DNA of 64,000 bases from Clostridia bacterium (lineage in GTDB: Bacteria > Bacillota > Clostridia > Oscillospirales > Acutalibacteraceae): the NCBI GenBank assembly GCA_017550625.1, contig JAFZOL010000039.1, forward strand, positions 23,211 to 87,210, read 5' to 3'. Of the stretch, positions 1 through 64,000 are shown piece after piece; the stretch's first letter is position 1, and each line of letters starts with the position of its first letter. The notes under the pieces are model-generated. The model saw nothing but the letters and a program-made list of their open reading frames with translations. It was not told the origin of the DNA and made no database searches. The position numbers and the translations under genes are program-made.

Positions 1-1570
1 TGGACGTGCGGTGGATGATATAGGGGTTCTTCTTGGAGCCGTCGCGGTCGGTATACTCCATGCCGAATTTCTCGGCGATCATCGGGTCGATCTGGATCGT
101 GATGAGCGTATCCTCTTTGCCGAAGACGTTCTTGATCTGGATGTCGAGCTTCGGGCCGTAGAAGGCGGCCTCGCCGATGCCGATCTTGTAATTGATGCCG
201 AGGTGATCGAGGATGCGGCCCATCATGCCCTGGACCTTGTCCCAGTCCTCTTCGGTGCCGATATACTTTTCGCGGTCGTTCGGGTCCCACTGCGAGAAGC
301 GGTAGGATACGTCGTCATACAGGCCCACGGCCTTGAGCATAAAGATCGCGAGCTCGAGGCAGGACTTGAACTCGTCCTCGAGCTGCTCGGGCGTGCACAT
401 GAGGTGGCCCTCGCTGATCGTGAACTGCCTGACACGGATGAGGCCGTGCATTTCGCCGGAGTCTTCATTCCGGAAGAGCGTGGAGGTCTCGTCATACCTG
501 AGCGGCAGGTCGCGGTAGGAGCGCGCGCGGTTGAGGTACGCCTGATACTGGAACGGGCAGGTCATGGGACGCAGGGCGAAGCATTCCTTCGACTCGTCGT
601 AGGGATCGCCGAGAACGAACATGCCGTCGAGATAATGGTCCCAGTGGCCGGAGATCTTATAGAGCTCGCGCTTGGCCATATAGGGCGTTTTCGTGAGCTG
701 CCAGCCGCGCTTGGCCTCTTCGTCCTCGACGAAGCGGGAAAGGGTCTGGATGACTTTCGCGCCTTTCGGCAACAGGATCGGCAGGCCCTGGCCGATGTAG
801 TCGACCGTGGTGAAGTATTCGAGCTCGCGGCCGAGCTTGTTATGGTCGCGTTTTTTGGCCTCCTCGAGCATCGTGAGGTGCGCCTCGAGCTCGCTCGCCT
901 TCGGGAAGGCGGTGCCGTAGACGCGGCAGAGCATCTTGTTTTTGGAGTCGCCGTGCCAGTAGGCGCCCGTGGCCGAGGTGAGCTTGAAGGCCTTGATCAC
1001 GCCCGTGGACGGGATGTGCGGGCCGGCGCAGAGCTCGACGAACTCGCCCTGCTTATAAAAGCTGATGGGCTCGCCCTTGTCGGCGTGGGCGGAGATGAGC
1101 TCGATCTTATAGGGCTCGTTTTTCTCTTCGTAGAGCTTGATCGCCTCTTCGGGTGAAAGCTCGAAGCGCTCGAGCTTCAGATCTTCTTTCACGATCTTTT
1201 TCATCTCGGCCTCGATCTTTTCAAGGTCTTCTGGCGAGAAGGCGGGCTCTATGTCGAAATCATAGTAGAAGCCGTTGTCGATGGCGGGGCCGATGGCAAG
1301 CTTCGCGTTCGGATACAGGCGCTTGACCGCCTGCGCGAGCACGTGGGAAGCCGTGTGGCGGAACGCCTTTTTGCCCTCGTCGTCGTCAAAGGTGAGAAAT
1401 TCGACCGCGCAGTCCTTTTCGATCGGGGTGCGAAGATCCTTCACTTCGCCGTCGATTTTGCACACGCACACGGCCTTGAAGAGCCCCGCGCCGAGACTTT
1501 TTGCGATCTCGAGGGCGGAGACGCCGCTCTCATACTGCCGGACGTCGTCTCTGAGTTTTACGTTTACCAT
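1..1570 (-). CDS. thrS: threonyl-tRNA synthetase (first ~523 codons; 3' end runs off the left window edge)
   Basis: Absent from the ORF track because it is truncated. Manual translation from ATG at 1570-1568 gives MVNVKLRDDVRQYESGVSALEIAKSLG...TASHVLAQAVKRLYPNAKLAIGPAIDNGFYYDF...RDHNKLGRELEYF...ALRPMTCPFQ...FRNEDSGEMHGLIRVRQFT (TGS, editing-type and class II core motifs). The + ORF 11..1156 is its antisense shadow. Confidence 0.95.
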   Translation of the reverse strand, partial: MVNVKLRDDVRQYESGVSALEIAKSLGAGLFKAVCVCKIDGEVKDLRTPIEKDCAVEFLTFDDDEGKKAFRHTASHVLAQAVKRLYPNAKLAIGPAIDNGFYYDFDIEPAFSPEDLEKIEAEMKKIVKEDLKLERFELSPEEAIKLYEEKNEPYKIELISAHADKGEPISFYKQGEFVELCAGPHIPSTGVIKAFKLTSATGAYWHGDSKNKMLCRVYGTAFPKASELEAHLTMLEEAKKRDHNKLGRELEYFTTVDYIGQGLPILLPKGAKVIQTLSRFVEDEEAKRGWQLTKTPYMAKRELYKISGHWDHYLDGMFVLGDPYDESKECFALRPMTCPFQYQAYLNRARSYRDLPLRYDETSTLFRNEDSGEMHGLIRVRQFTISEGHLMCTPEQLEDEFKSCLELAIFMLKAVGLYDDVSYRFSQWDPNDREKYIGTEEDWDKVQGMMGRILDHLGINYKIGIGEAAFYGPKLDIQIKNVFGKEDTLITIQIDPMIAEKFGMEYTDRDGSKKNPYIIHRTS

Positions 1571-1870: not shown

Positions 1871-2392
1871 TCAAGTGCTTTTTTCGTACAATTCGCCGTA
1901 TTCGAGCGAAAACACCGGGCCGCCCTCGCTGCAAAACAAGGCCGCACGGTAAAAGCCGCAGGGCCAGGTAGCGCAGTGCAGCGAAAAGAGATCGGCGCCG
2001 CCGAGCCCCGTGCCGGCGGCGAGGGCGTCGAGATCGACGTCCGGGATGAAGACGGCGGCAAGGGCGAGCGAGAAGGCGCGGAAATCGTCGGCGGACGAAA
2101 CCGAGTCGCCGTCGAGCGCCAGCGTGACGCTTGTCAGAAGGCCGGTTTCATCCTCTTTAAAGGTGAGAAGCATATCATTTTCACGCGTGAAGCCGTAGTA
2201 GACATACCACGTGCCGTCCACGCGGAAGAGGTTTTCCTCCGAAAAGGCAAAGCGCGAATCCGTTTCGCCGAGGCGGAGGCTGAGTTCCGAATAGTCCATA
2301 CGCGCGTTGCGCGCGCACGCGCCCAGAAGCAGGCAGAGGACAAAAAGGGCGGCGGTTCGGCAGGATCTCATTTCATCACAACTTTTTTTCAT
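1871..2392 (-). CDS. hypothetical lipoprotein
   Basis: In-frame ATG at 2392 gives MKKSCDEMRSCRTAALFVLCLLLGAC, a signal peptide plus lipobox-like LGAC. No recognisable domain. The track start at 2476 is probably an over-extension. Confidence 0.6.
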   Translation of the reverse strand: MKKSCDEMRSCRTAALFVLCLLLGACARNARMDYSELSLRLGETDSRFAFSEENLFRVDGTWYVYYGFTRENDMLLTFKEDETGLLTSVTLALDGDSVSSADDFRAFSLALAAVFIPDVDLDALAAGTGLGGADLFSLHCATWPCGFYRAALFCSEGGPVFSLEYGELYEKST

Positions 2393-2479
2393 TTTTTTCG
2401 ATTTTTCTCTTTCCCTTTTATAATATATGTAGTATAATGAAAAATAGAACACTATACCCATGAGAAGGAGGCGCACCGT

Positions 2480-3511
2480 ATGGCATACGAACGAAACGAC
2501 GACCTGCCTGACATTTCAGGGATTTTCAATATAGACGACGATATGATCCCCTCGAAGATCATCGAGAAGCCCGTTCAGAGAAAGCCCGTGAGCGGCACGG
2601 GCACCGCGCCCGCGAACAGCCGCAGAAAAGGCCAGAGGCCCGAGCCGATCCTTTTGCAGCAGCAGACGGCGAAGGAAGAGCAGCGCGCCTATCAGGGCAT
2701 CAGCTCCGAGGCGCACAGGCGCACCGTGTCGAAACGCAAGGAGCAGCAGAAAAAGCTGTTCCGCCGCAGGCTCATCCTGTTCGGCGCGGCGGTGGCGCTG
2801 GTGGCGGCGCTCGTGATCGCGATCGCGGTGTGGGTGTCAATAAAGAACCGTCCGCACGTGGTGATCACGCCCGTTCAGAGAGGCAGTTTTTCGGATACCT
2901 ATGAAGCCAACGCCATTATCTATACCGAGGTGACCGACGTCGGCGAGAGCCGCACCTACGCGGTGTTCGTGGACAACCGCTACGACCGCGAGACCTCGGC
3001 GCTCAAGACCGGCCTTGCCGCAGAGATCCGCATCTCGGACGAGGTGACGGTGACCGGGCGGCTGGTGTATATCCGACCGAACGAGGAGACGACCTCGCCG
3101 ATCGTGTCGCTGCTCGTGAGCTTACTGCCCGACACCGACTACGAGCCCTCGAACAACACCGTGATCATGGTGTATCTCGACGACGCGGACTCCGCGCCCG
3201 AAAACGCGACCGTGAAGGTGTTCATCAAAACCAACGAACAGGATAACGTGGTGATCGTGCCCCTCAGCCTCGTGCAGGACCCCGACGGCGAGCCGTATCT
3301 CTGGGTGTATAAGAGCTTCGGCAAGAAGCTCGTGAAAACGCCCGTGGAGCTCGGCTCCCGCTCGAAGGACGGCAACGTGGTCGTCACGAAAGGCGTGTCC
3401 GCCGGAACGCCCATCGTGTGCGAGGGCGACTTCGAAGCGATGGAAGACGGCATGAAAGTGAACGCCGAAGAACAAAGCACGGAATCCGGAGCGGCCGACG
3501 CCGCGCGGTGA
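2480..3511 (+). CDS. HlyD/efflux-adaptor-like membrane-anchored protein (barrel-sandwich/beta-barrel part only)
   Basis: RBS GAAGGAGG lies 9 nt upstream. It has a charged N-terminus, one TM helix (LILFGAAVALVAALVIAIAVWV), then an adaptor-like C-terminus (VKVFIKTNEQDNVVIVPLSLV...YLWVY...KLVKTPVELGSRSKDGNVVVTKGVSAGTPIV). Confidence 0.65.
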   Translation: MAYERNDDLPDISGIFNIDDDMIPSKIIEKPVQRKPVSGTGTAPANSRRKGQRPEPILLQQQTAKEEQRAYQGISSEAHRRTVSKRKEQQKKLFRRRLILFGAAVALVAALVIAIAVWVSIKNRPHVVITPVQRGSFSDTYEANAIIYTEVTDVGESRTYAVFVDNRYDRETSALKTGLAAEIRISDEVTVTGRLVYIRPNEETTSPIVSLLVSLLPDTDYEPSNNTVIMVYLDDADSAPENATVKVFIKTNEQDNVVIVPLSLVQDPDGEPYLWVYKSFGKKLVKTPVELGSRSKDGNVVVTKGVSAGTPIVCEGDFEAMEDGMKVNAEEQSTESGAADAAR

Positions 3512-3531
3512 TCCCCGAAAGGAGAAGAGAT

Positions 3532-5493
3532 ATGAAACTTCGCAGTCTTATCGTCATTCTGGCAGTCATCGCCGTCGTTTGTCTCTTCCCTGCCCTCGCT
3601 TTTGCCGAGGAAACGCCCGCCGAACCGGCGGCGCAGGAAGAGACGGCCGAAATCGCCCCGAGCGATTCGGTGTGCCACGTGCGCGGCGACGTTGACAGGG
3701 ACGGAAAGATCACGGCTTCGGACGCGCGCGCTGTGCTGCGCCTCGCCGTGGAGCTTGACGAGAGCGACGACTACACCGCCGTGGCCGCCGATTACGACAT
3801 GAACGGGAACCTCAGCGCCGGGGACGCGCGCTTCGTGCTGCGCGTGGCCGTGGGGCTCGATCCGAAGCCGGGGCATATCAGCACCGGGCGTGAGACGATC
3901 ACCGAGGCGACCTGTATGACCATCGGCACCGCGGGCAAGCACTGCGCCGTGTGCGGCTGCTATTATGACGTGGGCACCCTGCCCCGCGTGGACCACAAGT
4001 CCGGCGGCTGGATCCTGATCGTGCAGGCCACGTGCTCGTCCGAGGGCTATATGGTGCAGGAATGCGTGTATTGCGGTGAGGAGATCTCGTCGCGCACCGT
4101 GCCGATGCTTGAGCATGCCTACGACGCCGACCACCCCGTTTTCACGGAGGATAACCCCGACTGCACGAAGCTGCAGTATGTGGATTACGTTTGTATGAAC
4201 TGCGGCGCGAAGAAGCACACGCTTCGCTCGCCCTCGAAATATCACGATTATATCTGGATCGAGGCCCTCGCCCCCACCTGCACCACGCAGGGGCTTTTAG
4301 AGCAGCGGTGCAAGCGCTGCGATAAGGCGTCGGGCGAGCTGCAGGCCGAGCCCAGCCTCGGCGGGCATTCCCCCGTGTGGGTGACGGAAACCGAGCCCAA
4401 CGAAAACCTGCCCGGCCACCGCATTTATCGCTGCACGAAATGCCGCGAGGTGATCGAGGAAGAGGATATCCTGTATAAGCCCGGACCTCACCGCTTCGAC
4501 ATGCAGCACCCGGTGTTCCTTGACGAGAACCCCGACTGCACCGAGCTGCAGGAAGTGGAATACACCTGCCTTGACTGCGGCGAAAAGCGCGTGTCGCTGC
4601 GCCTGCCGTCGGCATCCCATAACTATACGTGGTTTGTGATCGACGAGCCCACCTGCACCAAGACCGGCGAGCAGGAAGAGCGCTGCGCGCGCTGCGAGCA
4701 GCTCTCGGGCAAGCCCAACGAGACGCTCGAAAAGCTGCCGCACGAATCCGCCGGCTGGACGCTGGTGGCCGAGGCGACCTGCTCGAGCGAAGGATTGCAG
4801 GAGGAATACTGCGCCGTGTGCGGCGAGCTGATCGGCACCAAGCGTCTGCCGAAGACCGCGCACGCGTATGACCGCGAGCATCCGCGCTTCGTGGACGAAG
4901 AGCCCGACTGCACCAAGCGCCAGAAGGTGGAGTATGCGTGCCTCAACTGCGGCGCGACGGTGCTGGAGGATTGGGAGCCGCTGGACGACCATCAGTTCGA
5001 CTGGGTGGCACACATCGAGCCCACCTGCACAGAAGAGGGCAGGGCGCACCGCGAATGCCTCGTGTGCGGCAAGATGAGCGCCTCGAACCTGACCCGCGTG
5101 CTGCCGCCGCTCGGCCACGACCCCGACTGGGAGCATATGCGCTTCCTTGACGAAAACCCCGACTGCACCGTCGCCCAGAAGGTGGAATGCGTGTGCCTGC
5201 GCTGCGGCGAGACCGTGGAGGTCGACTGGGAGCCGAAGGAAGCCCATGATTGGAAATGGATCGTCGAGATCGAACCCACCTGCACCGTCGACGGCAAGGA
5301 ATACGAGGCCTGCGCCGTGTGCGGCAAGCGCAAGAACGAGAACGTGTCGCGCGTGATCAACGCCCTCGGGCACGACCCCTATTGGGCGACGCTGTATCAG
5401 CCGACCGAGACCGAGCCCGGCCTTGAGATCTATCTCTGCCGCCGCTGCGGCGACGTGCTCGACCAGCGCGAGATCCCGGCGCTGACGCCGTAA
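3532..5493 (+). CDS. secreted dockerin-domain protein followed by ~13 tandem Cys-rich (C-x9-11-CxxC...H) modules
   Basis: ATG at 3532 with RBS AAAGGAGAAG. Signal peptide MKLRSLIVILAVIAVVCLFPALAFA. Dockerin duplicate DVDRDGKITASDARAVLRLAV / DYDMNGNLSAGDARFVLRVAV. Then 13 CxxC motifs, each preceded by PTC/ATC...G and followed by a His (e.g. HDYIWIEALAPTCTTQGLLEQRCKRCD). Confidence 0.85.
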   Translation: MKLRSLIVILAVIAVVCLFPALAFAEETPAEPAAQEETAEIAPSDSVCHVRGDVDRDGKITASDARAVLRLAVELDESDDYTAVAADYDMNGNLSAGDARFVLRVAVGLDPKPGHISTGRETITEATCMTIGTAGKHCAVCGCYYDVGTLPRVDHKSGGWILIVQATCSSEGYMVQECVYCGEEISSRTVPMLEHAYDADHPVFTEDNPDCTKLQYVDYVCMNCGAKKHTLRSPSKYHDYIWIEALAPTCTTQGLLEQRCKRCDKASGELQAEPSLGGHSPVWVTETEPNENLPGHRIYRCTKCREVIEEEDILYKPGPHRFDMQHPVFLDENPDCTELQEVEYTCLDCGEKRVSLRLPSASHNYTWFVIDEPTCTKTGEQEERCARCEQLSGKPNETLEKLPHESAGWTLVAEATCSSEGLQEEYCAVCGELIGTKRLPKTAHAYDREHPRFVDEEPDCTKRQKVEYACLNCGATVLEDWEPLDDHQFDWVAHIEPTCTEEGRAHRECLVCGKMSASNLTRVLPPLGHDPDWEHMRFLDENPDCTVAQKVECVCLRCGETVEVDWEPKEAHDWKWIVEIEPTCTVDGKEYEACAVCGKRKNENVSRVINALGHDPYWATLYQPTETEPGLEIYLCRRCGDVLDQREIPALTP

Positions 5494-5512: not shown

Positions 5513-5542
5513 ACCGCCCGTCGGATGACAGGCGGTTTTGTT
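5513..5542. terminator. intrinsic terminator between convergent genes
   Basis: ACCGCC-N12-GGCGGT followed by TTTGTT. Confidence 0.6.
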
Positions 5543-5558: not shown

Positions 5559-6806
5559 TCAGTCGGCGCCGAAGGCTTCCTGCACCGCGTAATAGGCGGG
5601 CTTGGGATTGCCCTCGCCGTCCACGATGCCCCAGCCGGTCTCGACCGGGCAATCCTTCTGGCCGCAGACGTAGCAGTGGTCGGAGTCGTTCCACATATAG
5701 ATGAACGCGCCGATGCACCACGACAGGCTCTTCATCTCTTTGATGAGATAGGAGAAATAGGTGGCCTGGCCCTCGGGCGTGTGCGGGACGCCGTAGATGC
5801 CGGTGCCTTCGCTGAGTTCCCGGTAGATGTGGTTGGCGTATTCGCCCTTGAAGAGCAGGTTCCACTTTTCATCGTCGGAGAGGTTCGCGTAATACTCGTC
5901 GAACTCCTCTTTGAGGTCGGGGGGAAGACGGGAGATGAAGGTATCCACGTCGTTACGCACGTCCTCTTCGGAATCGAAGCCGTAGCTCTGCAGGATCTCT
6001 TTCTTCTCGGCGGCGGTCTTGGGCTCGCCGTAGCCGATATAGCCGAACTCGGTCATGAGGACGGGCTTTTTGGTCTCGATGCGGATGAGCTTGAGGGCCG
6101 CGAGATGGACGTTGATGTTCTTGACGATGTTCTCGAACGAGCCGAAATAGAGGTCCACGCCCACGTAGTCGCAGTATTTGTGGTATTCTTTCATGAGCGG
6201 CGGGAGCTTGAGCACACCGTCGGGACCGCCGAGGTTGTAGCCGATGATGACGTCGCCGCGGATCGGATACATGGCTTCGAGCTGCACGCCGATGAAGCGC
6301 GCGGCCTCTTCAAGCGTGAAGGGCTCGGTGAAGCGGTCGACGCCCATTTCGTTGGTGATCTGGAAGCCGCTCGCGATATCGCGGAGGTCGTTCATCAGGA
6401 AAACGGCGATCTCCTGAATGCCCTTGAGGCCCTCTTCGGTGCGGCAGTCGAGGCCGTAGCCGAGGTATTTATTGGGATAGGGCGTGATCGCGAACACCTT
6501 GATGCCGTGTCTGACGTAGCGCTTCATCTCGGCCTTCCAATCCTTATAGTGCTGCGAGATGTTGCCGTTCAGGTCATAGGGGAACGGGATGTCCTCGCGG
6601 ATCCAGCCGATGTTCGCGTCGAGGATCATATCGTAGTCCTCTTCGGGATGACAGACGCCGGCGATGAAGCCGCCGACCTGCTCTTTGACCTTTTTGGGGG
6701 TCTGGTCGACGGGGTTCGTGAACATGCCGAGCATGCCCGAAAGCCAGGGCGTGATCAGCGCGAGCAGAAGACCCAGAGATTTCGAAAGCCAAAGGGGCAG
6801 CTGCAT
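5559..6806 (-). CDS. clan GH-A (TIM-barrel) glycoside hydrolase-like protein with N-terminal membrane anchor/signal
   Basis: ATG at 6806 is preceded by AGAGGAGA; the track start at 6824 is a TTG inside that RBS region. NEMG (acid/base-like) and MTEFGY (nucleophile-like) motifs have the spacing typical of GH5-like enzymes. Family not assignable by eye. Confidence 0.6.
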   Translation of the reverse strand: MQLPLWLSKSLGLLLALITPWLSGMLGMFTNPVDQTPKKVKEQVGGFIAGVCHPEEDYDMILDANIGWIREDIPFPYDLNGNISQHYKDWKAEMKRYVRHGIKVFAITPYPNKYLGYGLDCRTEEGLKGIQEIAVFLMNDLRDIASGFQITNEMGVDRFTEPFTLEEAARFIGVQLEAMYPIRGDVIIGYNLGGPDGVLKLPPLMKEYHKYCDYVGVDLYFGSFENIVKNINVHLAALKLIRIETKKPVLMTEFGYIGYGEPKTAAEKKEILQSYGFDSEEDVRNDVDTFISRLPPDLKEEFDEYYANLSDDEKWNLLFKGEYANHIYRELSEGTGIYGVPHTPEGQATYFSYLIKEMKSLSWCIGAFIYMWNDSDHCYVCGQKDCPVETGWGIVDGEGNPKPAYYAVQEAFGAD

Positions 6807-6913
6807 AAAACGATCTCCTCTCAATATATAGATTTACAGTATAATTAAAGCACAAACAATGGGACGTGTCAACTGTAAAGCTATGAGCAAACTATGAATA
6901 AAAATCAGATATT

Positions 6914-9001
6914 CTATGAACCGAAATCAAATGCCGCCTGCCCGTCGCTGAGGCGTATCACGGCCGAAAACGGCTTGCCCGTTTTCGACACGAAGCCCGA
7001 GAGCTTTTCGGTCGCGCCGGACAACAGAAGGGCGCGCACCTCGGCGAAGGTGAAGGGGCGGCCGCAGAGGACAATGGGCACCGACAGGGGGCAGCCTGAC
7101 TCTTTGTGCTCGCACTCAAAGCGGTAGCGCCCGCGCGTCACCTTGCCGCCGCACAGGGGGCAGACGCTGACGCTCTCGCCGTAAAAACCGGTGTAGGCGG
7201 GGCTTGCAGCGTCGTTGACCTCGCGCGTGAACACCTCGGTGATCTCGGCCTCGGCGAGCTTTACCGCCTCGTTCACGGTCATCTCGCCCCGGTAGACGCG
7301 CTTGAGCGCCTTGCCGAGCGACGAGGTCTTATATTTATCCATCGAGATCTGCATGTCGACGAGCGACTCAATGAGGAACCTGCCGCCGGGCAGGATGCGG
7401 TAGACGTCCTTTTTGAGCTCGATATACTTGCTTTTGATCGCGTTGTCGATGATGCCGGTGCGCGTGGCCTCGGTGCCGAGCTCAAGGCCCTCGAAGATCG
7501 CGCGGTATTCTTCGCGGTCGTCGTCGGTCTCGGCGGCCTTTTTCTCGTCGCGGAACGGGTTTTTGAGATAGTTGTTGAGCGTTTCGATCGTGTAGTGCTT
7601 CGGCGGCGAGGTCTCTTTTTCCTTCGGCTGAAAGTCGATATTGATCTGATCGCCGACGTTCACGTTCGGCAGCAGCTTGTCGGAGCGCGGCGAGTCGTCG
7701 AATTTCGTCCAGCCGGGGGTGAGGATCACGGTGCCCTTGACGGTGAAATCCTCGTATTTGCCGACGCGCACGGTCATTTCGGTTTTCTGCGCGACGCAAT
7801 CCTCGGCGCAGAACACCATCACGAAGCGCCGGAGAACTGCCGAATAGACGAGCTTTTCGCGATCGGTCAGCTTATCGGGAGAAGGGAGCTTGTAGGTCGG
7901 CGTGAGGGCGGAGTGGGATTCGATCTTCGAGTCGTCGAAGATCGTTTTTTTATCCTTGAACACGACGGGATAGCCGAGCCCCTTCACGTTTTCGAGGATC
8001 TTTTTCACCTTGTCCTTCTCGGCGGTAGCGAGATATTCGGAGTTCGTGCGGGGATAGGTGAGGTACCCCGCCTCGTAGAGCTTCTGGACGATCGCGAGGG
8101 ATTCGTCCATCGACATCTTATATTTCTTGCCGAGAAAGTTCTGGAGCTTCGAGAGCGAATAGAGCTTGCCGGGGTTGAGCGTTTCTTTTTTCGACTTTTT
8201 GTCAACTACCACGGCGCCGGCGGCGTTCATAAGAGCGGCGGCCTTTTCGGCGCGTGCGGGATTGTCGGGGCTGAACTTATATTTCGACGTGAGCGTCACC
8301 TCGACGCCGTCGGTCTCGGCGGAAGAGACCAGCGCGAGATATTTCTCGGGCGTGAAGCGCTCGATCTCAAGGTCGCGGTCGTAGATCGCCTTCACGATGG
8401 GCACGATCACCCTGCCGACGCGCAGCAGCGCCCCGGTTTTGAGCGTGGAAAAGCGCGTGAGGTTCACGCCGTAGAGCCAGTCGATGTAGGTGCGGGCGAA
8501 GCCCTCGTTCGCAAGCGGGTCGTAGGCGGAATCGGGCTGCATGTCGGACAGGGCGGCGCGGATGGTCTCGTCCGTCTGGTCCGGCAGCCAGAGGCGTTTG
8601 ACGGGCTTGTCGACGCCCGCCTCGGCGATGCATTGGCGCACGATGATCTCGCCCTCGCGGTCGGCGTCGCCCGCGTTGACGATCTTGTCCACGTCGTCGC
8701 GGGAGATGAGGGCCTTGATGACCTCGAACTGCCGCTTCGCGCCCGCGTCGGTCTGCTTGTTGTCGTCCCTTTTCAGGCGATAACGGAAGGTTTCGGGATA
8801 ATACGGCAGGCCCTCGAGCGTCCATTTCTTTTCGGCGGAGCCCGTGTAATCCTCGATGTCGCACAGCGAAAACAGGTGGCCGAACGCCCACGTGACGAAG
8901 CAGCCCCTGCCCTCGAAATAGCCGGAGCGTTTCGTCATCTGCCCGATCGCGCCCGCGATATTGCGCGCGAGGCTCGGTTTTTCGGCGATGATGACCGTCA
9001 T
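6914..9001 (-). CDS. topB: DNA topoisomerase III with C-terminal zinc-ribbon region
   Basis: MTVIIAEKPSLARNIAGAIG (Toprim), WAFGHLFSL, DADREGEII, active-site region LYEAGYLTYPRTNSEYL, C-terminal CPLCGGKV...FECEHKESGCP. Confidence 0.92.
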   Translation of the reverse strand: MTVIIAEKPSLARNIAGAIGQMTKRSGYFEGRGCFVTWAFGHLFSLCDIEDYTGSAEKKWTLEGLPYYPETFRYRLKRDDNKQTDAGAKRQFEVIKALISRDDVDKIVNAGDADREGEIIVRQCIAEAGVDKPVKRLWLPDQTDETIRAALSDMQPDSAYDPLANEGFARTYIDWLYGVNLTRFSTLKTGALLRVGRVIVPIVKAIYDRDLEIERFTPEKYLALVSSAETDGVEVTLTSKYKFSPDNPARAEKAAALMNAAGAVVVDKKSKKETLNPGKLYSLSKLQNFLGKKYKMSMDESLAIVQKLYEAGYLTYPRTNSEYLATAEKDKVKKILENVKGLGYPVVFKDKKTIFDDSKIESHSALTPTYKLPSPDKLTDREKLVYSAVLRRFVMVFCAEDCVAQKTEMTVRVGKYEDFTVKGTVILTPGWTKFDDSPRSDKLLPNVNVGDQINIDFQPKEKETSPPKHYTIETLNNYLKNPFRDEKKAAETDDDREEYRAIFEGLELGTEATRTGIIDNAIKSKYIELKKDVYRILPGGRFLIESLVDMQISMDKYKTSSLGKALKRVYRGEMTVNEAVKLAEAEITEVFTREVNDAASPAYTGFYGESVSVCPLCGGKVTRGRYRFECEHKESGCPLSVPIVLCGRPFTFAEVRALLLSGATEKLSGFVSKTGKPFSAVIRLSDGQAAFDFGS

Positions 9002-9876
9002 GCGTTCTCACCCGCTTTCGCCTCGGCCTCGGCCTCGCGTCTGAGCTCGGCGAGGTACCTTTCGCGCGCGACGCGCTTTTTTTCGGCGCGGTTGTAGAGG
9101 ATCTTTTCGTCGTGGGCGCGTTTGCGCGCGGCCTTGAAACGATTAAGGCGGCTTTGGTAGCCGCTGCGGACCGCTGCCGAATAGGCGGCGTAGACGTGAT
9201 AGTTTTCGAGCCGGTCTTCGGGCGTCACAAGCCGCTCGCCGCTGAAAAAGCCGAATTCGCGCCTTAAATGCGGCGTTACGAGGGCGTAGGTGCCGATGGG
9301 CGTGAGCACGTCGCGGGGCAGCTCGGATTTGAGGTCGTCGAGCGTGCGGCACACGGCGGTCTTTTTGAAATAATAGGCGTGCAGGTGGAAAACGGTGCGC
9401 CCGAGCCCCAAAACGCTGCCGAGCAGCAGGCCGCAGACGAAGGGCACGGGCACGCCCTCTTTGCGGTCGAACTCTTCAGGCCCGACGTAAGAGAGCACGC
9501 AGAGATCCCCCCGGTGCCAGAAGAGCTCCGCCTTGCCCGGGAAGCACGAAGCGACGGCGGCGAGGTCTTCGGGCGCAACGAAGCAGCGCGGCGACACGCG
9601 CGCCGAGAGGTTCATCTTGACCGCCACGCCGACGAAGAGCCACAAAAGCTTTTCGTCCGACACGGTGACCGCGATATGGCCGTGCCACGGCACGCGGGCG
9701 ATGGGCGTGACGCGCACGACGCCTTCATCCGGACGGAACTCAGCCCCGCCGGAGAGCGCCCCGATGAAGGCCGCGGCTTCACGCAGCTTTTTTTCTTTTC
9801 TGAGATCGTAGGGGATCTCGGTCGGTTCGCCAGACGCGAGCGCCGCGGCGAGCATATCCACAGCCGTGTTGAGCAT
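8998..9876 (-). CDS. hypothetical protein, translationally coupled to topB
   Basis: 292 aa. ATG with RBS GGGGAGGG, and its stop overlaps the topB start (ATGA). No motif recognised. Basic coiled C-terminus (KRAHDEKILYNRAEKKRVARERYLAELRREAEAEAKA). Confidence 0.65.
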   Translation of the reverse strand: MLNTAVDMLAAALASGEPTEIPYDLRKEKKLREAAAFIGALSGGAEFRPDEGVVRVTPIARVPWHGHIAVTVSDEKLLWLFVGVAVKMNLSARVSPRCFVAPEDLAAVASCFPGKAELFWHRGDLCVLSYVGPEEFDRKEGVPVPFVCGLLLGSVLGLGRTVFHLHAYYFKKTAVCRTLDDLKSELPRDVLTPIGTYALVTPHLRREFGFFSGERLVTPEDRLENYHVYAAYSAAVRSGYQSRLNRFKAARKRAHDEKILYNRAEKKRVARERYLAELRREAEAEAKAGENA

Positions 9877-11750: not shown

Positions 11751-11785
11751 AAACGCCCGTGGATTCCACGGGCGTTTCGTTTGTT
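11751..11785. terminator. bidirectional intrinsic terminator
   Basis: AAACGCCCGTGG-ATT-CCACGGGCGTTT, flanked by an A-run and T-rich tail, between convergent genes. Confidence 0.75.
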
Positions 11786-11791
11786 CGGAGA

Positions 11792-14110
11792 TTATTCCGC
11801 GGCGGGCGCTTCGGCGACAGCTTCGACGGCCTCTTCGACCTTCTCGGCAGCCTCTTCGGCGACGGCTTCGACGGCCTCTTCGACGGCGGCGGGCGCTTCC
11901 TCAACGGCAGCTTCCACAGCCTCGGCAGCCTTTTCGACAGCGGCGGGCGCCTCTTCGACGGCGGCGGGCGCCTCTTCGACGGCGGCAACGGCCTCTTCGA
12001 CGGCGGCGGGCGCCTCTTCGACGGTCTCTTCAGCCTTCGCTTCGGCGGCCTTGGCCTTCGCGATCATTTCGTCGATCGAAAGGACGGCGGGACCTTCTTC
12101 CACGCGGGGACGCTCTTCTCTGGGCTTTCTCTCGGGCGGGGGAAGAAGGGCCTTGATGGAGAGGGAGATCCTCTTCTTCTCAAAGTCGATATCGGTGATC
12201 TTGACCTTCACCTCGTCGCCGATGGACAGCACGTCCTGCGGCTTCTCGATGCGCTCGTTGGCGATCTGGGAGATGTGGATCAGGCCTTCCATTCTCGGGA
12301 AGATCTCGGCGAACGCGCCGAAGGTGGTCATGCGCACGATGCGCACGGTGATCTCGCTGCCGACGGGATAGTCGCGGCGCAGGATCTCCCACGGGTTATC
12401 CTCGATCTTCTTGTAGCCGAGAGAGATCTTCTTCTTCTCGGTGTCGAGACCCTTGATGTAGACCTCAACGGTGTCGCCCACGTTCACGACCTCGCTCGGA
12501 TGCTTGATGCGCTTCCAGGAGAGCTCGGTGCGGTGGATCATGCCGTCAACACCGGGGGCGAGCTCGACGAACGCGCCGTAATCGGTGAGGGACTTGACGG
12601 TGCCGGTATACTTCTGGCCTTCGGCGGCCTCGGCCCAGAACTTTTCTTTGGCTTCTTTGCGCGCGGAGCGGGCTGCGTCACGGATGGAGCCCACGGCCCT
12701 GCGGCGGCGCTTGTCGATGTCGATGACGGTGAACTTGACCTCTTTGTTGAGCATGTCTTCAAGTCTGCCGTCTCTCGGCACGGTGGAAAGCGAAGCGGGC
12801 ACGAAAATGCGGATGCCGTTGGAGAAGACGATGAGACCCTTGCTGATCACCTCAACAACAGTTCCCTCAAGAATCGTCCCTTCCTTGTTCGCTTCAACAA
12901 TACCGTCCCAATACTTCACCGCGTCGTAACGCTTTTTGGAGAGCATGACCGTACCTTCGACGTCGTTGGTCTTCATGATGATGAGATTGAGCTCATCGCC
13001 GACCTTCAGCTCTTTCATGGGATCCGCCGTGGGATCGTCGGAATACTCGTCAAGCGGTACGTAACCGGTCTGCTTTCTGCCGATGTCAACCTGGATCTCG
13101 TTCGGTGCGATATGCATAACGGTACCAACGACTTTCTGATCGTTGTTCATGCTGCTGAGGGATTCCTCAAGAGCCTGCTCGAAGGACAGTTCTTCGGGTT
13201 CTGCAGCGACCTCGACCGGTTCCATGGTCTCGGCGGCTTCTGAGATGTTTTCAAGAATCTCGGACATTGTTTTGTTTACCTCCTTAATTGTACTATCCGG
13301 AGTGGACGCTCCGGCAGTAACTCCGATCGAACGGACGCCAGTAAAATCAATATTTTTTAGTTCTTCGGCGTTCTCGATAAGATACGTTTTCGTCTTCATA
13401 AGGCACAGGTGATACAGCTTTTGGGTGTTGGAGCTGTTGCGCCCGCCGATGACGATCATCATATCATTCTCTCCCGAGAGCTTTTCTGCCTCGGCTTGTC
13501 TGAGAGCGGTAGCGTTACATATTGTATCAAATAATTTCAGGTTTGTACAGTATTTTTTCGCAATTTTTTCGCATTTTTTAAATTCTTTTGCGTCGAAAGT
13601 CGTCTGGCTGACCATCGTGACGGGGGCATTGGACGGCAGGGCGCCGCTTTCGAGCAGGGTTTGGAGCTCTTCGGCCGACGCGACGACAAAATCGCGCGTG
13701 GAAACATAGCTCCGGATGCCCCGCACCTCGGGGTGGGAAGCGTCGCCCGCGATGAGGATGAGGTCGCCCGCGTCCGACGCTTTTTTCACGATCGCGTGGA
13801 TCTTTTTGACGAAGGGGCAGGTGACGTCGGCAAAGGCGATCCCGCTTTGTTCGATCTCGTCGCTCTCATCCCGCGTGACGCCGTGGGTGCGGATGAACAG
13901 GGTGCGCCCGGCGGGGCAGTCGGCGGGCGAAGACACGACCGAAACGCCCCGGTCCTCAAGCGAGCGGATAAAACCGGGGTTATGGATGAGCGGCCCGAGC
14001 GTGCAGGCCGCTTTGCCCGCGGCGAGGTGCGCCCCGAGCAGATTGACCGCGCGGTCCACGCCGAAGCAGAAGCCGGCGGTGGACGCGAGGGTGACGCGGA
14101 CCTCAGGCAT
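11792..14110 (-). CDS. ispH: bifunctional 4-hydroxy-3-methylbut-2-enyl diphosphate reductase (IspH/LytB) / ribosomal protein S1-like fusion
   Basis: N-terminal half is LytB-like ([35 protein letters not shown]). The C-terminal half has four S1 domains ([59 protein letters not shown]). ATG at 14110 with GGAGAAG upstream; the track start at 14143 is a TTG. Confidence 0.9.
11795..12061 (-). repeat. in-frame tandem low-complexity repeat encoding the [13 protein letters not shown] tail of IspH-S1
   Basis: Visible ~21-24-nt periodicity (cgcctcttcgacggcggcgggcg repeated). Translates to ...[48 protein letters not shown]... Confidence 0.85.
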
Positions 14111-16640: not shown

Positions 16641-17996
16641 TCAGTCGATGACCGTGACGGTCACGTTCGTGCGGTACGCTGCCGCCTCGAAATCCGCCTC
16701 GTAATCGGACGAGATCTCATATTTGCCGTCGCGGCAGTCGGCGAGGAACGCCTCGTACTGCGCGCGGGTGAAGGTGTTCATGCGCCAGACCTTCGTCGGC
16801 AGGCAGACGCCGCCCTCTTCAACGCCGACGACCATGCCGCTCTCCGCGTAGTCGGCGGCCTTGCCCTCATAGCAGAGCTTGAGGGCGCTCTGGACCGCGC
16901 CGCAGAAATCCTTGCAGGCAGCAGTCATGAAACACTCGTAGTTATTCACGAAATCGGCGGAGTCGCAGCCGATCACGAGCTTATCCGCCGCTTCGGCCGC
17001 CGCGCGGATGGACTCCACGATGCCGCCGCCGCAGCTCATGATCGCCTCGGTGCCGCCCGCATACAATTCGCCGGCGAGCGCCTCGATCTCGGGGGATGCG
17101 CTGAAAAAGGCGTATTTCGTGGTGTATTTGAGTTCAACGGTGACGCCGAGCTCCTTCGCCGCGGCGTTGATGCCCTGCAGGTAGCCGAAGCCGTAGCGGT
17201 TGACGCCCGGGGACATTCCGCCGCCGCCGCCGTAAAAGCCGAGCTTCGTGAGGCCTTCTTTCACGGCTGCGTAGCCCGCGAGGAAGCCCGCGTGGTCCTC
17301 TTTGAAGGTCACGGGCAGCACGTTTTCGATCAGCGAGCCGTCACCGTCCGCGAGGGTGTAGCCGTCCATGAAGATGAACTGCACGTCCGGGTGCGCGGGG
17401 GCGACCTCGTTCAGGGCGACGTCGAACATAAAGCCCGCGACGACCACGATCTTCGCGCCGTTTTCGATTGCGGCGTTCAGCGCGGCGATATAGTCCGCGT
17501 CGTAAGCCTCCTCCGCGTTCTGCGGGATATAGTATTTGTAGGTTTTTCCGTTTTCGGAAGAAAAGCGCTTGACGCCGTTCCACGCGTCTTCGTTGAAGCC
17601 GTGATCCTTCACCTCAGCGGAATCGGAGACGTAGGCGATCTCGTAGACGCCGGTTTCGGACGCCGGTTCGTCGGGAATGGCGTCGTAGTCGAACCCTTCG
17701 TCGTAGGGCTCGGGTTCTTCCTCGGCAGGGGGCAGCTCCTCGAGGCCCACGGCGGCCCTGAGGATCAGGCGCGCGTCGGAGGCGGTGATCTTGTCGTCGC
17801 GGTCCGCGTCGGCAAGCTTTGTCTGCTCCGCGGTGAGCGTTTCAAGGTCCACGGCGGCGCGAAGCGCAAGGCGCGCGTCGGAGGCGGTCACCTTGCCGTC
17901 GCCGTCGATATCGCCGGCAAGCGCCGCCAGAGCGGCGGACGTGAGACTCAGGCACATGAGCGCCGCCAAAAGCAGCGCAAAGATCCGTTTTTTCAT
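16641..17996 (-). CDS. secreted BMP-family (PnrA/Med-like) substrate-binding protein with N-terminal dockerin
   Basis: Signal peptide MKKRIFALLLAALMCLSLTSAALA. Dockerin pair DIDGDGKVTASDARLALRAAV / DADRDDKITASDARLILRAAV. BMP-like core (DHGFNEDAWNGV, KIVVVAGFMF, FKEDHAGFLAGYAA, GGGGGMSPGVNRYGFGYLQG). Confidence 0.8.
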   Translation of the reverse strand: MKKRIFALLLAALMCLSLTSAALAALAGDIDGDGKVTASDARLALRAAVDLETLTAEQTKLADADRDDKITASDARLILRAAVGLEELPPAEEEPEPYDEGFDYDAIPDEPASETGVYEIAYVSDSAEVKDHGFNEDAWNGVKRFSSENGKTYKYYIPQNAEEAYDADYIAALNAAIENGAKIVVVAGFMFDVALNEVAPAHPDVQFIFMDGYTLADGDGSLIENVLPVTFKEDHAGFLAGYAAVKEGLTKLGFYGGGGGMSPGVNRYGFGYLQGINAAAKELGVTVELKYTTKYAFFSASPEIEALAGELYAGGTEAIMSCGGGIVESIRAAAEAADKLVIGCDSADFVNNYECFMTAACKDFCGAVQSALKLCYEGKAADYAESGMVVGVEEGGVCLPTKVWRMNTFTRAQYEAFLADCRDGKYEISSDYEADFEAAAYRTNVTVTVID

Positions 17997-33581: not shown

Positions 33582-33586
33582 AATCG

Positions 33587-34810: not shown

Positions 34811-34851
34811 GGGTGCTTCCTCCGAGGGTCAGATGTGTAAAGGGAACGGCT

Positions 34852-35889: not shown

Positions 35890-35990
35890 GCCATCAAATC
35901 CTTTCTCATATGCCCGCTAAGGGGCGGAAAACGCGGCGCGCCGCGTGTCAGTCTAATATTTTTATACCATTAATATATGAAACGAGCCTG

Positions 35991-37409: not shown

Positions 37410-37459
37410 GAAAGCAACCTCCGGATTTGGATTTCTTTCTCTCTCACACCTTCATTGCT

Positions 37460-39700: not shown

Positions 39701-39744
39701 CCCGATTCCTCCTTTAAATTTCAAGTTATAGTTTATTTTATATT

Positions 39745-54194: not shown

Positions 54195-57100
54195 TCAGCC
54201 GAACAGGTGTTGGAAGAAATAGATGATGCGGTGGAAGAAGCCGATGATCGCCCCGAAGAAGCCGGTGTGCACCTCGCCGCAGAGCTTGCAGCGGTCCGGG
54301 CCCCTGAGGTCGGCGCTGCATCTGTCGCAATAGCCGTCGCCGTTATTGTCGGCGTGGCCGAGCGGCTCGGTGAACGTCATATCAGTGTCGCCGCAAGTTT
54401 CACAGGTCCTGACCGTCCAGCCGTTCGTGGTGCAGGTCGGATCGTTGTGGTCGGTCACTACGTACCGGTGCGCTGTTTTCGGCACCGTGCGCAGCTCCGT
54501 GAAGCGCTGATCGCAGTATTTGCAGAAGTCACCCTCAAGGCCCGTCGCGGTGCAGGAAGGCTCCTGTACGGTGCGGGTCTCGAACTCGTGCTCGCCGGTC
54601 GCCGGCAGGATCACGTGACGGTAATAGCTGCAATATCTACAGCGGATATCGTAGCTGCCGTCATCCACGCAGGTCGGTTCGAACCGGTTATTCTCATACA
54701 GAGAGTGTTCCTTTATCGGAATGATCTCTTCGGGCCCGAGCCGCGCGCCGCAAACGGAGCAGATCTGCACCTTTCTGCCCTCGTTATTGCAGGTGGCACC
54801 TCTGACGGTATAGGTCTCCGAAGACGGATGCGCGCAGGGCTCGCCGAACGCGGGCATGCCGTTTTCATCTGTCGTCCACGAAAGAGCCGGGGCGTCGGGA
54901 ACGGAATAAAACTTGTTGAAGTTCTTAAGATAGATGCCGTTCAGATACTCCAGAACGGTCCAGCCGGACGAGGTCGTCAGGGTCGTATCGAAGCTGCTCA
55001 CGCTGCTGAGCTGGCAATAGCCCTCGGTTATGATCCCCTGCGAACAGGAGGTGTCGAGCCAGAACACGTCCTGGCACGTCGCCTGCCGGAACCTGCCGAT
55101 CGCGCAGGCTGTTTGCGTGGCGGAGACGCTGCCGTAGCTGACGCACCTGTAAAGCGCGAAGGTGTTTGCGTTGTGAAAACTGTTGACGGCAGCGATGCCG
55201 GAAGCGCACGCGTTAACGGAGCCCGAACCGCCCGCCGTGATCTCACCCGCATTCAGGCAGTTATATACCCTGCCTTCGCAGGATGTGACGACGCCGGCGA
55301 GGGAGACGACCATCGTGCTGCTGTAAACATAGGATGGCTTCTCCGCAACGCGGCCGTAGTTGATGCAGTTCGCGATCACGCCGTCCTCGTTCCGGTTGCC
55401 GACGCACACGCCCGCGAGGTACCACACGCCTTCGATCGTGCCGTAGTTCACGCAGAGGTTCACAACGCCCGTGTTGCCGCCGACCACGCCGGCCGCGCAG
55501 GCGTATTTCGAATCGATCGCCATCCGGTTCACACAGCGCAGCACCTTGCCGTCGCTGCGCGCTACGACCCCGGCGTAGTATTTTTGCGAGCTGCCGGATC
55601 GAGACAGCTGTCTGAGCGTGCCGCCCGCGATCTCACAGTCCTGCACGGTGCCGCCCACGAGCAGCCGCGCGCACAGCGCCGCTGCCTCATAGTCGGAGTT
55701 GAGCGAAAGATTGACGTTATCGAGCACCGTGTTCTGGATCACGCCGCCGCCCGCCAAGACGCCGAAGAGACCGAACACGCTTTGGTTCGCGTTCGAGTAA
55801 TCGGTCGCCGTAAGGCCGCTGACGGTGTGGTTCTGTCCGTCGAAAACGCCGCGGAAAAACTGAGGCGCAGTGGAGGCGGAAATCGGCTCCCACGTGGAGA
55901 AGCCCGAAATATCGATATCGTTTTCGAGCAGCACCGTGCGCCCCGCGAAGTCGTCGATGCCGCGGTTGACGAGGCGCGCGAGCTCGTGCAGCTCTTCGGG
56001 CGTGCGGATGCGCAGCGGGGAGCCCGTTTTCGAATACCAGGCCCCGGCCGCGAGCACGTGGACCGTGAGTTCGGCGGTCTTACCGCCCGCCGCGGCGGTC
56101 ACGACCGTGTCGCCCTCGTTAAGCGCCGTGAGCACGCCGTCGGGGCCGACCGTTGCCACCGTCGGGTCGGAGGAGGTCCACGTCACGTCCGCGTTCCCGT
56201 TCATGTTCAGCGGCAGCGAAAGGCTCTCGCCCACGATGGCGCCGACGGCTTCCGTTTCGAACCAGAGGAAGAAGTCGTCCGACTCGAAGACCCCCTCGAG
56301 CGGGATGGGCATGTCGTTTTCGACGCCCCAGAGGTAGCAGACGTCACCCTTCAGGCCGTTATACCGGAACGCGTAAGCGTTCAGTTTGTCCGTAAGCAGC
56401 TCGCCCTCTGCGGTGAGCAATGCGTCGTCGAAGTTCGTGACCTCGGGATTGTTCGCCTTCTGCGGAGCGTCGCCCTGAATTGCCTGACTTGCAAAGCGGA
56501 GGCTGTAGGCGCCGGTCCTGTCCCAGCAGTTTTCATAGAGCGTATAGCCCGAGGTGTGCGCCATGGAATAGCGCGCGCGCCCGTAGCTGACGCAGTTGAT
56601 CATGGCGGAGATGTTGTCGATATCAAGGGGATGCTCCTGCTCCGGCTCGTCCTCGCCGTCGCCGTCGCCGCCGTCGTCGTCCGCCGCCTCGGCCGTGTAG
56701 GTCACCATGTCGACATCCCAGTTGGAGATGAGGCACACGAGACCTGCCGACACCACGCTGTCAACGTCGCCGAGGTTCACGCAGTTGATGAACTGCGAGC
56801 CGTAAACGCTCAACGCGGCAATACCGCCCGCGAAGACGCCGCTGCCGGTGACGTGGGCGGCGTTGACGCAGTTCGAGACCGTGCAGGTGTAGGCGCTGGC
56901 CGCAATGCCGCCGACGTCGTTCAGACGGCACTCGACCGTGCCGCTCACACGGCAGTCGTCGATCACGGTCTCCTGCGCGAGGGCGCAGATGCCGGAAATG
57001 ACCGACATGCCGGAGATGTCCGCGTCCACGAGGCGAACGCCGCGGATCTCGGAGCGGTAGGCGGAGGCGAACAGGCCGTAATACCGGCCGTCGCCGTGAT

Positions 57101-59210: not shown

Positions 59211-59249
59211 AGGGATTCCTCCGGTTTTTTGGTGCATTTTACCAGTCTT

Positions 59250-63809: not shown

Positions 63810-64000
63810 ATGAAAAAAGTTCTGAGCATCATGCTTTCCCTGCTTCTGGTCATGGGCCTGTTCACGTTCGCTTTCGCCGAGGATGAACCCGCGGAAACGT
63901 GCGAGCACGTTTGGGGCGAATGGGTGGTCGACAGCGCCGCCGATTACCGCGTGACGGGGCATCACCACAGGACCTGCGAGGTCTGCGGCGAGACCGAGGA
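63810..64000 (+). CDS. secreted Cys-rich-module protein (5' fragment; continues past the right window edge)
   Basis: Not in the ORF track. MKKVLSIMLSLLLVMGLFTFAFAEDEPAETCEHVWGEWVVDSAADYRVTGHHHRTCEVCGETE... is a signal peptide followed by the same H-x-W...C-x2-C-G module as 3532..5493. Confidence 0.75.
   Translation, partial: MKKVLSIMLSLLLVMGLFTFAFAEDEPAETCEHVWGEWVVDSAADYRVTGHHHRTCEVCGETE

Follow-up and report, generated by a model that had tools for sequence, protein, structure and literature searches.

We found that a gene near the beginning of the 64,000-nucleotide stretch of Clostridia bacterium DNA analysed here (contig JAFZOL010000039.1; the whole stretch is referred to as the window) encodes a secreted protein composed of an N-terminal dockerin and 13 tandem modules with recurrent Cys and His residues, and that these modules belong to a very large family lacking annotation. 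The host is an uncultured member of the Oscillospirales, an obligately anaerobic gut lineage. With a probability that we set at about 0.6, the protein is a secreted, dockerin-anchored rod in which neighbouring modules share a zinc ion and which serves as a stalk, spacer or fibril. This reading draws on the domain architecture, on membership in the module family, on the predicted fold and on the manner in which the putative metal ligands covary across module junctions.

The gene lies in an open reading frame (ORF) that extends from 3418 to 5493 on the plus strand, with an ATG start codon at 3532 (Table 1), and the identical 653-amino-acid (aa) product was annotated by gene callers in independent public assemblies. 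The product starts with a Sec-type signal peptide ending in PALAFA before EE, predicted by AlphaFold2 (AF2) to be helical at aa 2–23, and a short acidic linker separates it from the dockerin. The latter is a duplication, DVDRDGKITASDAR-AVLRLAV and DYDMNGNLSAGDAR-FVLRVAV, in which each copy of about 22 residues comprises an EF-hand-like Ca2+ loop and, after it, a helix. When the whole protein was compared with Pfam at E ≤ 1, dockerin and EF-hand models were the sole matches; several solved dockerins (2ccl_B, 1ohz_B, 4uyp_B and that of R. bromii Amy16) were matched weakly. The AF2 model has dockerin helices at aa 62–72, 80–86 and 96–106, with a block-mean predicted local distance difference test score (pLDDT) of about 89–95 over aa 51–110, and a Foldseek search of the PDB with the whole-protein model brought no structural confirmation of the dockerin. 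The duplicated Ca-loop-plus-helix segment is shared with type I dockerins (PF00404) of cellulosome and amylosome components; these, however, are usually placed at the C-terminus, whereas here the dockerin is N-terminal and its cargo is not a carbohydrate-active enzyme (CAZyme).

Two side observations concern the dockerin. A cysteine, Cys48 (3673–3675), is positioned 3–5 residues ahead of its first Ca2+ loop and is kept in five of six other homologs with an N-terminal dockerin (P0002, P0004, P0007, P0009 and P0010, not P0050). Because the two ends of the dockerin lie close together, we speculate that Cys48 could serve as a fourth ligand for the site of module 1 and thus staple the dockerin to the rod. 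Furthermore, the window encodes a second N-terminal dockerin protein (16641–17996, minus strand) of 451 aa, in which the dockerin (PF00404, 33.3 bits) is combined with a Bmp/PnrA-like substrate-binding domain (PF02608, E=2e-31), an unusual arrangement, as the dockerin stands in place of the lipid anchor of an ABC-transporter solute-binding protein. Its dockerin matches that of the module protein at E=6e-16, and, judged from these sequences, it shows that the host uses N-terminal dockerins broadly, including for cargo other than CAZymes.

From aa 115 to its C-terminus, the protein consists of exactly 13 CxxC-centred modules of 40–43 aa each, which we delimited from one junction His to the residue preceding the next. 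The junction His and the CxxC motif (Cys2 and Cys3) are present in 13 of 13 modules, and an additional upstream cysteine (Cys1) in 11, where the spacing is C-x9-C-x2-C; the other two modules (at aa 301 and aa 636) have CxxC alone. A preliminary description of this DNA, made from the sequence only, had proposed a secreted dockerin protein with about 13 tandem modules of C-x9-11-CxxC spacing; the signal peptide, the duplicated dockerin and the module count bear this out, while the spacing holds for 11 modules and not for the two that lack Cys1. Pairwise comparison of the modules revealed three subtypes, which follow one another as A A B A C B A A B A B A C. The array is not a chance pattern, since all 13 modules still score 15–44 bits each with a profile whose sequences were drawn mainly from other proteins. 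We detected no DNA-level tandem repeat in the array with Tandem Repeats Finder, and the modules are therefore old and diverged rather than the product of a recent expansion. The ortholog P0002 (46–49% identity) has 11 modules instead of 13, modules 10 and 11 being absent from it. Modules 5, 6 and 13 are 55–71% identical between the orthologs (63% for module 5 and 71% for module 6), which is comparable with the dockerin (63%), whereas the shared A-type modules are only 30–52% identical.

We found no Pfam or NCBIfam model that covers the module. A Pfam scan of 58 four-module segments from many proteins gave matches scattered over 103 zinc-finger, zinc-ribbon and rubredoxin-like models, of which zf-CHY was the commonest (18 of 58 segments), and every match of the segment from the window protein itself stayed far under the cut-off (e.g., Zn_Ribbon_TF with 13.6 against 29 bits). 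In terms of sequence, such scattered matches are a generic CxxCG knuckle signal and not a mark of family membership. A word-indexed search retrieved 174 relatives, whose named sources are all metagenome-assembled genomes of Clostridia, Oscillospiraceae or Ruminococcaceae, and in which the module is combined with dockerin, cohesin, SLH, BspA-type LRR, CAP, Big_2, FN3, PG-binding, YkuD, transglutaminase-like, S8 and other peptidase domains. Of 122 proteins compared with an iterated profile hidden Markov model (HMM), 121 contained the module, 1078 times in total; the median was 9 copies per protein and the highest count 21. Across the 120 closest homologs the number ranges from 1 to 21, and some of them carry 7–21 modules. 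When 1.84 billion cluster representatives (clusters at 50% identity) were searched exhaustively with a profile, 75,744 proteins were matched at E ≤ 1e-3, 51,521 at E ≤ 1e-10 and 21,022 at E ≤ 1e-30; among them are proteins as long as 7,583 aa that match at dozens of places. The module family is thus very large (at least 75,744 clusters), unannotated and not lineage-specific; with this size and with such varied domain partners, the earlier view of a lineage-expanded module does not hold. Among about 900 non-redundant modules, Cys1 is present in 89%, Cys2 in 99%, Cys3 in 97% and a Gly in 97%, while the junction column contains His in 73% of the alignment rows and gaps in 24%. Positions conserved throughout the family are the putative ligands together with Gly, Pro and Thr.

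The sole match of a profile of four-module segments among PDB sequences was 9qa6_A (aa 849–978 and 1091–1142, E=1.4e-9), which the single protein also reached with phmmer, at E=1e-3; the stretch of our protein that matches it is module 12. This entry is the IgA metallopeptidase IgAse of Thomasclavelia ramosa (UniProt Q9AES2; PMC12237041, 2025), whose homologous regions were named ZBD1 and ZBD2 and described from AlphaFold3 models as elongated strings of three-stranded up-and-down β-sheet subdomains, about 110 Å per three, with putative zinc sites of the tetrahedral His2Cys2 or Cys3His type where two subdomains meet (PMC12237041). They are dispensable for catalysis, no disulfides occur in the structures or models, and the authors likewise proposed a stiff zinc-stabilised stalk or spacer (PMC12237041). 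Subdomains of about 35–45 aa, the junction His with its CxxC knuckle, predicted interface sites and an extracellular location are common to the ZBDs and our array. In contrast, the modules of IgAse number 3+2, on either side of an Ig-like barrel, instead of 13; its sites are mostly of the His2Cys2 type with Cys1 replaced (ATAT), where ours would be mostly Cys3His; and its modules come after a metzincin and before a sortase signal in the chain, where our protein has an N-terminal dockerin and no enzyme. By this homology, the dockerin-module protein is a new member of the barely characterised IgAse-type ZBD kind. The supposition that the module belongs to no nameable family was hence right as regards Pfam and NCBIfam, although a name, attached to a prediction, has existed since 2025. 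In the literature on dockerin zinc ribbons, Cys-rich dockerin repeats, the motifs and structural-zinc rods, only the IgAse paper proved relevant.

The fold was predicted with AF2 for aa 147–326 (modules 2–5), based on a 58-row alignment of four-module segments, and for the whole protein. The four modules reached a mean pLDDT of 92.5, and each module of type A or C forms a three-stranded antiparallel up-and-down sheet (strands at, e.g., 11–18, 26–32 and 38–44), whereas in the B-type module the first strand is irregular and two strands are clear. In the whole-protein model (pLDDT 78.9) the three-strand pattern is repeated in 12 of 13 modules, module 11 having low pLDDT. DSSP assigned no helix of at least four residues to the array in either model, the low-confidence module 11 having just a turn of 3 residues. 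Foldseek found nothing in the PDB at E ≤ 1e-3 for the four-module model (TM-score ≤ 0.18), and only spurious β-repeat or propeller matches for the whole protein (TM-score ≤ 0.1). At the "bottom" of each predicted sheet, are the junction His, just before β1, and the CxxC knuckle, between β2 and β3; at the "top" are Cys1, in the β1–β2 turn, and, after β3, the next junction His. Within one module, Cys1 and the CxxC are therefore found at opposite ends of a strand pair of 7–8 residues, which makes an intra-module Cys3His site geometrically implausible. Judging by the model and the sequences, the four ligands of a site most likely come from two modules, with Cys1 contributed by module n and the junction His, Cys2 and Cys3 by module n+1.

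This placement of the site is supported along four independent lines by the covariation of ligands, which we followed in about 1000 modules, using for the junction test a set de-duplicated at 60% identity. Cys1 is present in 96.6% of internal modules versus 63.9% of those which are last in their array (p=5e-37); its loss in module 13 of our protein is typical of array-terminal modules. An extra ligand at the junction, in the form of [C/H]-x-H or H-x-C, is rare after a Cys1-bearing module (1.3%, n=523), but is found at 76% of the junctions where the adjacent preceding module lacks Cys1 (n=25, p=2e-24) and in 39% of first-of-array modules (n=151, p=3e-35). At least two Cys/His residues are found in the junction window of 60% of first-of-array modules, and a His is found in that of 99.9% of modules which follow a Cys1-bearing one. 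Both Cys and His occur at the compensating position, and owing to this interchange a metal ligand is to be expected there rather than a disulfide partner. The same substitution can be seen within one ortholog pair, in which module 8 of the window protein (P0001) has Cys1 and its next junction reads T-A-H, while P0002 lacks this Cys1 and reads H-V-H. Furthermore, both other arrays in the window open with such a cap, C-A-H in the tail of an S8 peptidase and C-E-H in the gene at 63810. The junction between modules 5 and 6 is the only internal one of our protein without a preceding Cys1, and a His2Cys2 site is predicted for it. A His of the same module compensating for the lost Cys1 was also considered and rejected (extra His before Cys2 at 13.9% versus 17.8%, p=0.4), so that the intra-module site was dropped and the junction examined instead. 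Taken from the sequences, the caps and the covariation of Cys1 support a site which is probably built between modules and not inside one zinc ribbon.

On these grounds the following mechanism can be proposed. After Sec export, the N-terminal dockerin would plug into a cohesin on a cell-surface scaffoldin, and each pair of successive modules would be stapled by one tetrahedral metal ion, most probably Zn2+, held by the Cys in the β1–β2 turn of module n and by the linker His and the CxxC between β2 and β3 of module n+1; where Cys1 is missing, a second junction His or Cys would substitute for it. The outcome would be a stiff acidic rod, about 45–50 nm in length if the approximately 37 Å per module of the IgAse model applies, that would dispense with disulfides and so suit a strict anaerobe. 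The array of some 540 residues would probably act as a stalk, spacer or fibril whose distal end is formed here by the modules themselves, and a binding surface may be present on modules 5, 6 and 13, which are the best conserved. Many homologs have the array positioned between a head and an anchor (S8 or other heads to dockerin, SLH, transmembrane helix or LPXTG; cohesin to transmembrane helix), and the module occurs together with cohesins as well as dockerins. This location between head and anchor, the variable number of modules and the structural nature of the conserved positions fit a generic stiff stalk or spacer that zinc, in place of disulfides, would stabilise.

Several points weigh against the rod with shared zinc. 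Its inter-module site is drawn from strand topology and covariation, tetrahedral zinc at the junctions is putative in every family member, and the experimental maps of IgAse end at N876, ahead of the ZBDs (PMC12237041). The covariation rule is not absolute either: 64% of array-terminal modules keep Cys1, a recognisable cap is present in only 39–60% of first modules, and module 1 of our protein is without a [C/H]-x-H cap. In addition, the B-type modules always have H-x5-H, that is, two His even where Cys1 is available. As regards anchoring, the dockerin scores 22.8 bits with Pfam Dockerin_1 (PF00404), marginally below the cut-off of 22.9 (E=1e-4), and a phmmer comparison of four cohesin segments with the six-frame translation detected no cohesin within the 64-kb window. 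Lastly, a pure spacer role is unsatisfying for a protein without a distal head.

The last point leads to the view that the array chiefly serves adhesion or ligand binding, to a glycan, a host protein or another cell, and is displayed by the dockerin, with stiffness being secondary. The protein has no other domain, five other homologs share its dockerin-plus-modules-only design, a layout counted in six of the 120 closest, modules 5, 6 and 13 are conserved like the dockerin and the A-type modules less so, and protein binding was also considered by the authors of the IgAse study (PMC12237041). Yet the positions conserved family-wide are structural (ligands, Gly, Pro and Thr), the module number varies freely and no ligand is known; we thus regard a primary binding role as unlikely, if worth bearing in mind, and as compatible with zinc-stapled modules rather than opposed to them. 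Less probable still is that every module folds and binds zinc by itself, as a zinc ribbon or treble-clef finger, in which case the modules would be beads on a flexible string. The preliminary description had leaned this way, and its ligand set of three Cys and one His per repeat does remain the likely metal-binding set; the weak sub-threshold matches to zinc-ribbon, zf-CHY and rubredoxin-like Pfam models and the distant resemblance of one IgAse subdomain to the TFIIS zinc ribbon (PMC12237041) point in the same direction. A self-contained fold is nevertheless hard to reconcile with Cys1 and its own CxxC at opposite sheet ends, with the selective loss of Cys1 in array-terminal modules and the caps where a preceding Cys1 is absent, or with the predicted structure of the module, which has no helix, and hence no treble clef, and a single CxxC knuckle. 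Classical zinc ribbons (the TFIIS C-terminal domain, TFIIB) do share the three-stranded antiparallel sheet and the CxxCG knuckle at a β-turn; they differ in having two CxxC knuckles and a zinc within one domain, in place of one CxxC and a single Cys, and the module family is extracellular, tandem, without nucleic-acid context and matched by no Pfam model at threshold.

It is quite improbable that the cysteines form disulfides or remain free without any metal, as in the knots of EGF and other extracellular Cys-rich repeats. Disulfides would be the normal means of stabilising an extracytoplasmic protein such as this one, and IgAse constructs were monodisperse only with a reducing agent, so their thiols are reactive (PMC12237041). 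Against this stand the odd number of Cys per module, the nearly invariant junction His, the interchange of Cys and His, the obligately anaerobic host lineage and the lack of disulfides in the IgAse structures and models. We give hardly any credence to a role in redox chemistry, extracellular electron transfer or zinc storage for a chain of rubredoxin-like Fe or Zn centres, which could be imagined from thirteen Cys-rich metal sites per protein and from weak matches of some homologous segments to rubredoxin-like and desulforedoxin Pfam models. The centres would be about 35 Å apart (from about 110 Å per three subdomains), far past electron-tunnelling range, and the electron-wire or Fe-S reading was rejected on this spacing; moreover, the family is attached to unrelated enzymes and anchors, and Cys3His structural sites bind metal too tightly for buffering. 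A ribosomally synthesised peptide precursor was also set aside, in view of the signal peptide and the dockerin.

As for analogous systems, the rod with shared zinc resembles Ca-binding EGF-like arrays (e.g., fibrillin), in which small β-rich modules follow in tandem and a junction Ca2+ stiffens the rod. The comparison was drawn by the IgAse authors too (PMC12237041), and it is one of analogy only: the EGF-like fold is unrelated, has three disulfides and binds Ca2+ through acidic residues, whereas the modules would use thiolate and imidazole, with no disulfides expected. In projecting domains from the cell surface by a variable number of repeats, the modules are also similar to the "periscope proteins" (SHIRT, Rib, G5-E of SasG/Aap; PMC9704523), the repeats of which differ in their unrelated folds and in being near-identical at the DNA level and driven by recombination, whereas the modules described here are diverged and leave no DNA repeat. 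In Aap, the zinc contacts are inter-molecular, while those proposed here are within the chain.

Among the units from which surface proteins of gut Firmicutes are built, the module is one of the more abundant in public data, yet it has no curated model, and the only published account of it is a passing, AlphaFold-based remark in an article on a protease. Should the zinc-staple model be true, it would add a new class of extracellular structural metal site, explain how surface stalks of anaerobes are stiffened and help to annotate the giant surface proteins, tens of thousands in number, that are now labelled "hypothetical", among them cellulosome- and amylosome-like scaffoldins, peptidases such as IgA protease and SLH-anchored proteins. 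The covariation of a [C/H]-x-H cap with the preceding Cys1 offers a testable prediction and a basis for a family model. More tentatively, Cys3His/His2Cys2 staples might be a general means by which strictly anaerobic Firmicutes build rigid rods without disulfides or isopeptide bonds. Such rods would perhaps be switchable mechanically, because the staples would be thiolate-zinc sites: oxidation or zinc sequestration by the host could unstaple them, and the surface architecture would then depend on how much oxygen or zinc is available in the gut.

Table 1. Positions of the gene, its parts and the other features listed for the window (position 1 is the first nucleotide of the window)
Feature	Position	Strand	Basis
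Gene for secreted dockerin and 13-module protein, 653 aa, stop codon included	3532..5493	+	ORF list, translation
Ribosome-binding site AGGAG, 7 nucleotides before ATG	3520..3524	+	read from sequence
Signal peptide, aa 1-25, MKLRSLIVILAVIAVVCLFPALAFA before EE	3532..3606	+	sequence features; cleavage site inferred
N-terminal dockerin, aa ~49-110, two Ca-loop-plus-helix segments (DVDRDGKITASDARAVLRLAV / DYDMNGNLSAGDARFVLRVAV)	3676..3861	+	
Array of 13 Cys/His modules, aa 115-653	3874..5490	+	HMM matches for 13/13, identity matrix, AF2
Module 1, type A, aa 115-154; H115, C128, C138, C141, extra H137, C143	3874..3993	+	
Module 2, type A, aa 155-194; H155, C168, C178, C181	3994..4113	+	
Module 3, type B, aa 195-237; H195-x5-H201, C211, C221, C224	4114..4242	+	
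Module 4, type A, aa 238-278; H238, C250, C260, C263	4243..4365	+	
Module 5, type C, no Cys1, aa 279-319; H279, H296, C301, C304	4366..4488	+	
Module 6, type B, aa 320-362; H320-x5-H326, C336, C346, C349	4489..4617	+	
Module 7, type A, aa 363-403; H363, C375, C385, C388	4618..4740	+	
Module 8, type A, aa 404-443; H404, C417, C427, C430	4741..4860	+	
Module 9, type B, aa 444-486; H444-x5-H450, C460, C470, C473	4861..4989	+	
Module 10, type A, aa 487-528; H487, C499, C509, C512	4990..5115	+	
Module 11, type B, aa 529-571; H529-x5-H535, C545, C555, C558, plus C553	5116..5244	+	
Module 12, type A, aa 572-613; H572, C584, C594, C597	5245..5370	+	
Module 13, type C, terminal, no Cys1, aa 614-653; H614, C636, C639	5371..5490	+	
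Four modules, aa 1467-1628 of 1680-aa S8 peptidase, opening C-A-H cap	54354..54839	-	HMM matches
Third secreted protein, start only (window end): signal peptide, C-E-H cap, first module	63810..63998	+	translation; HMM 22 bits
GC-rich hairpin with T runs on both strands, 20 nucleotides past stop	5513..5536	.	pattern scan, consensus match only

The recurrence of the module in two other genes of the window, noticed beforehand from the sequence, was confirmed by the HMM, which detects four modules in the tail of the S8 peptidase and one near the start of the product of the gene at 63810, where the first module reads …TCEHVWGEW…HHHRTCEVCG. The S8 peptidase gene (54195–59237, minus strand) encodes Peptidase_S8, Big-like and Big_2 domains of Pfam further upstream in the protein. 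Between these catalytic and Big domains and the modules (aa ~600–1460) there are about 800 residues without a Pfam match, including two internally similar Gly/Ala/Val-rich stretches with a β-helix- or repeat-like look. The last 52 aa of the peptidase (54198–54353, minus strand; GHADNNGDGYCDRCSADLRGPDRCKLCGEVHTGFFGAIIGFFHRIIYFFQHLFG) consist of a Cys/His cluster and a subsequent aromatic-rich hydrophobic or amphipathic helix, and may be a membrane anchor or sorting signal. By eye, similar tails end the proteins P0014, P0033, P0043, P0040 and P0039; a jackhmmer search with this tail against the 120 closest homologs gave no significant relatives, and no Pfam or NCBIfam model covers it.

The genes on both sides of the dockerin-module gene keep their positions elsewhere. 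The upstream gene (2480–3511, plus strand), which ends 20 nucleotides before it in an arrangement kept in two independent assemblies, may be co-transcribed with it; its product is a 343-aa single-pass membrane protein, the C-terminal part of which bears a weak likeness to periplasmic adaptors (membrane-fusion proteins) of RND/ABC efflux systems (TIGR01730, 47.7 bits, cut-off 94.9). Downstream, the hairpin listed in Table 1 is likely, by its sequence pattern, a bidirectional terminator shared with the convergent gene at 5559–6824 (minus strand), which encodes 421 aa and whose synteny with the dockerin gene is conserved. This gene has no Pfam match, nor do the ORFs 11–1156 (+), 1871–2476 (-), 8998–9876 (-), 11759–13243 (+) and 23329–25131 (+); NCBIfam matches were likewise absent for 5559–6824, 11–1156, 1871–2476 and 8998–9876. 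Apart from 5559–6824, some of these ORFs may be spurious in high-GC sequence.

As regards the host, a single-protein search of GTDB species representatives found no relative of the dockerin-module protein; the neighbouring topoisomerase is 78% identical to its closest GTDB species representatives, and many of the related representatives are labelled Acutalibacteraceae. The window also contains genes for SpoIIP and a dcw-type cluster with a MurG-like glycosyltransferase, a Mur ligase and a penicillin-binding protein with PASTA domains (20496–21566 and 32472–39724, both on the minus strand), a gene content which indicates that this stretch belongs to the chromosome of a spore-forming Firmicute and not to a mobile element.

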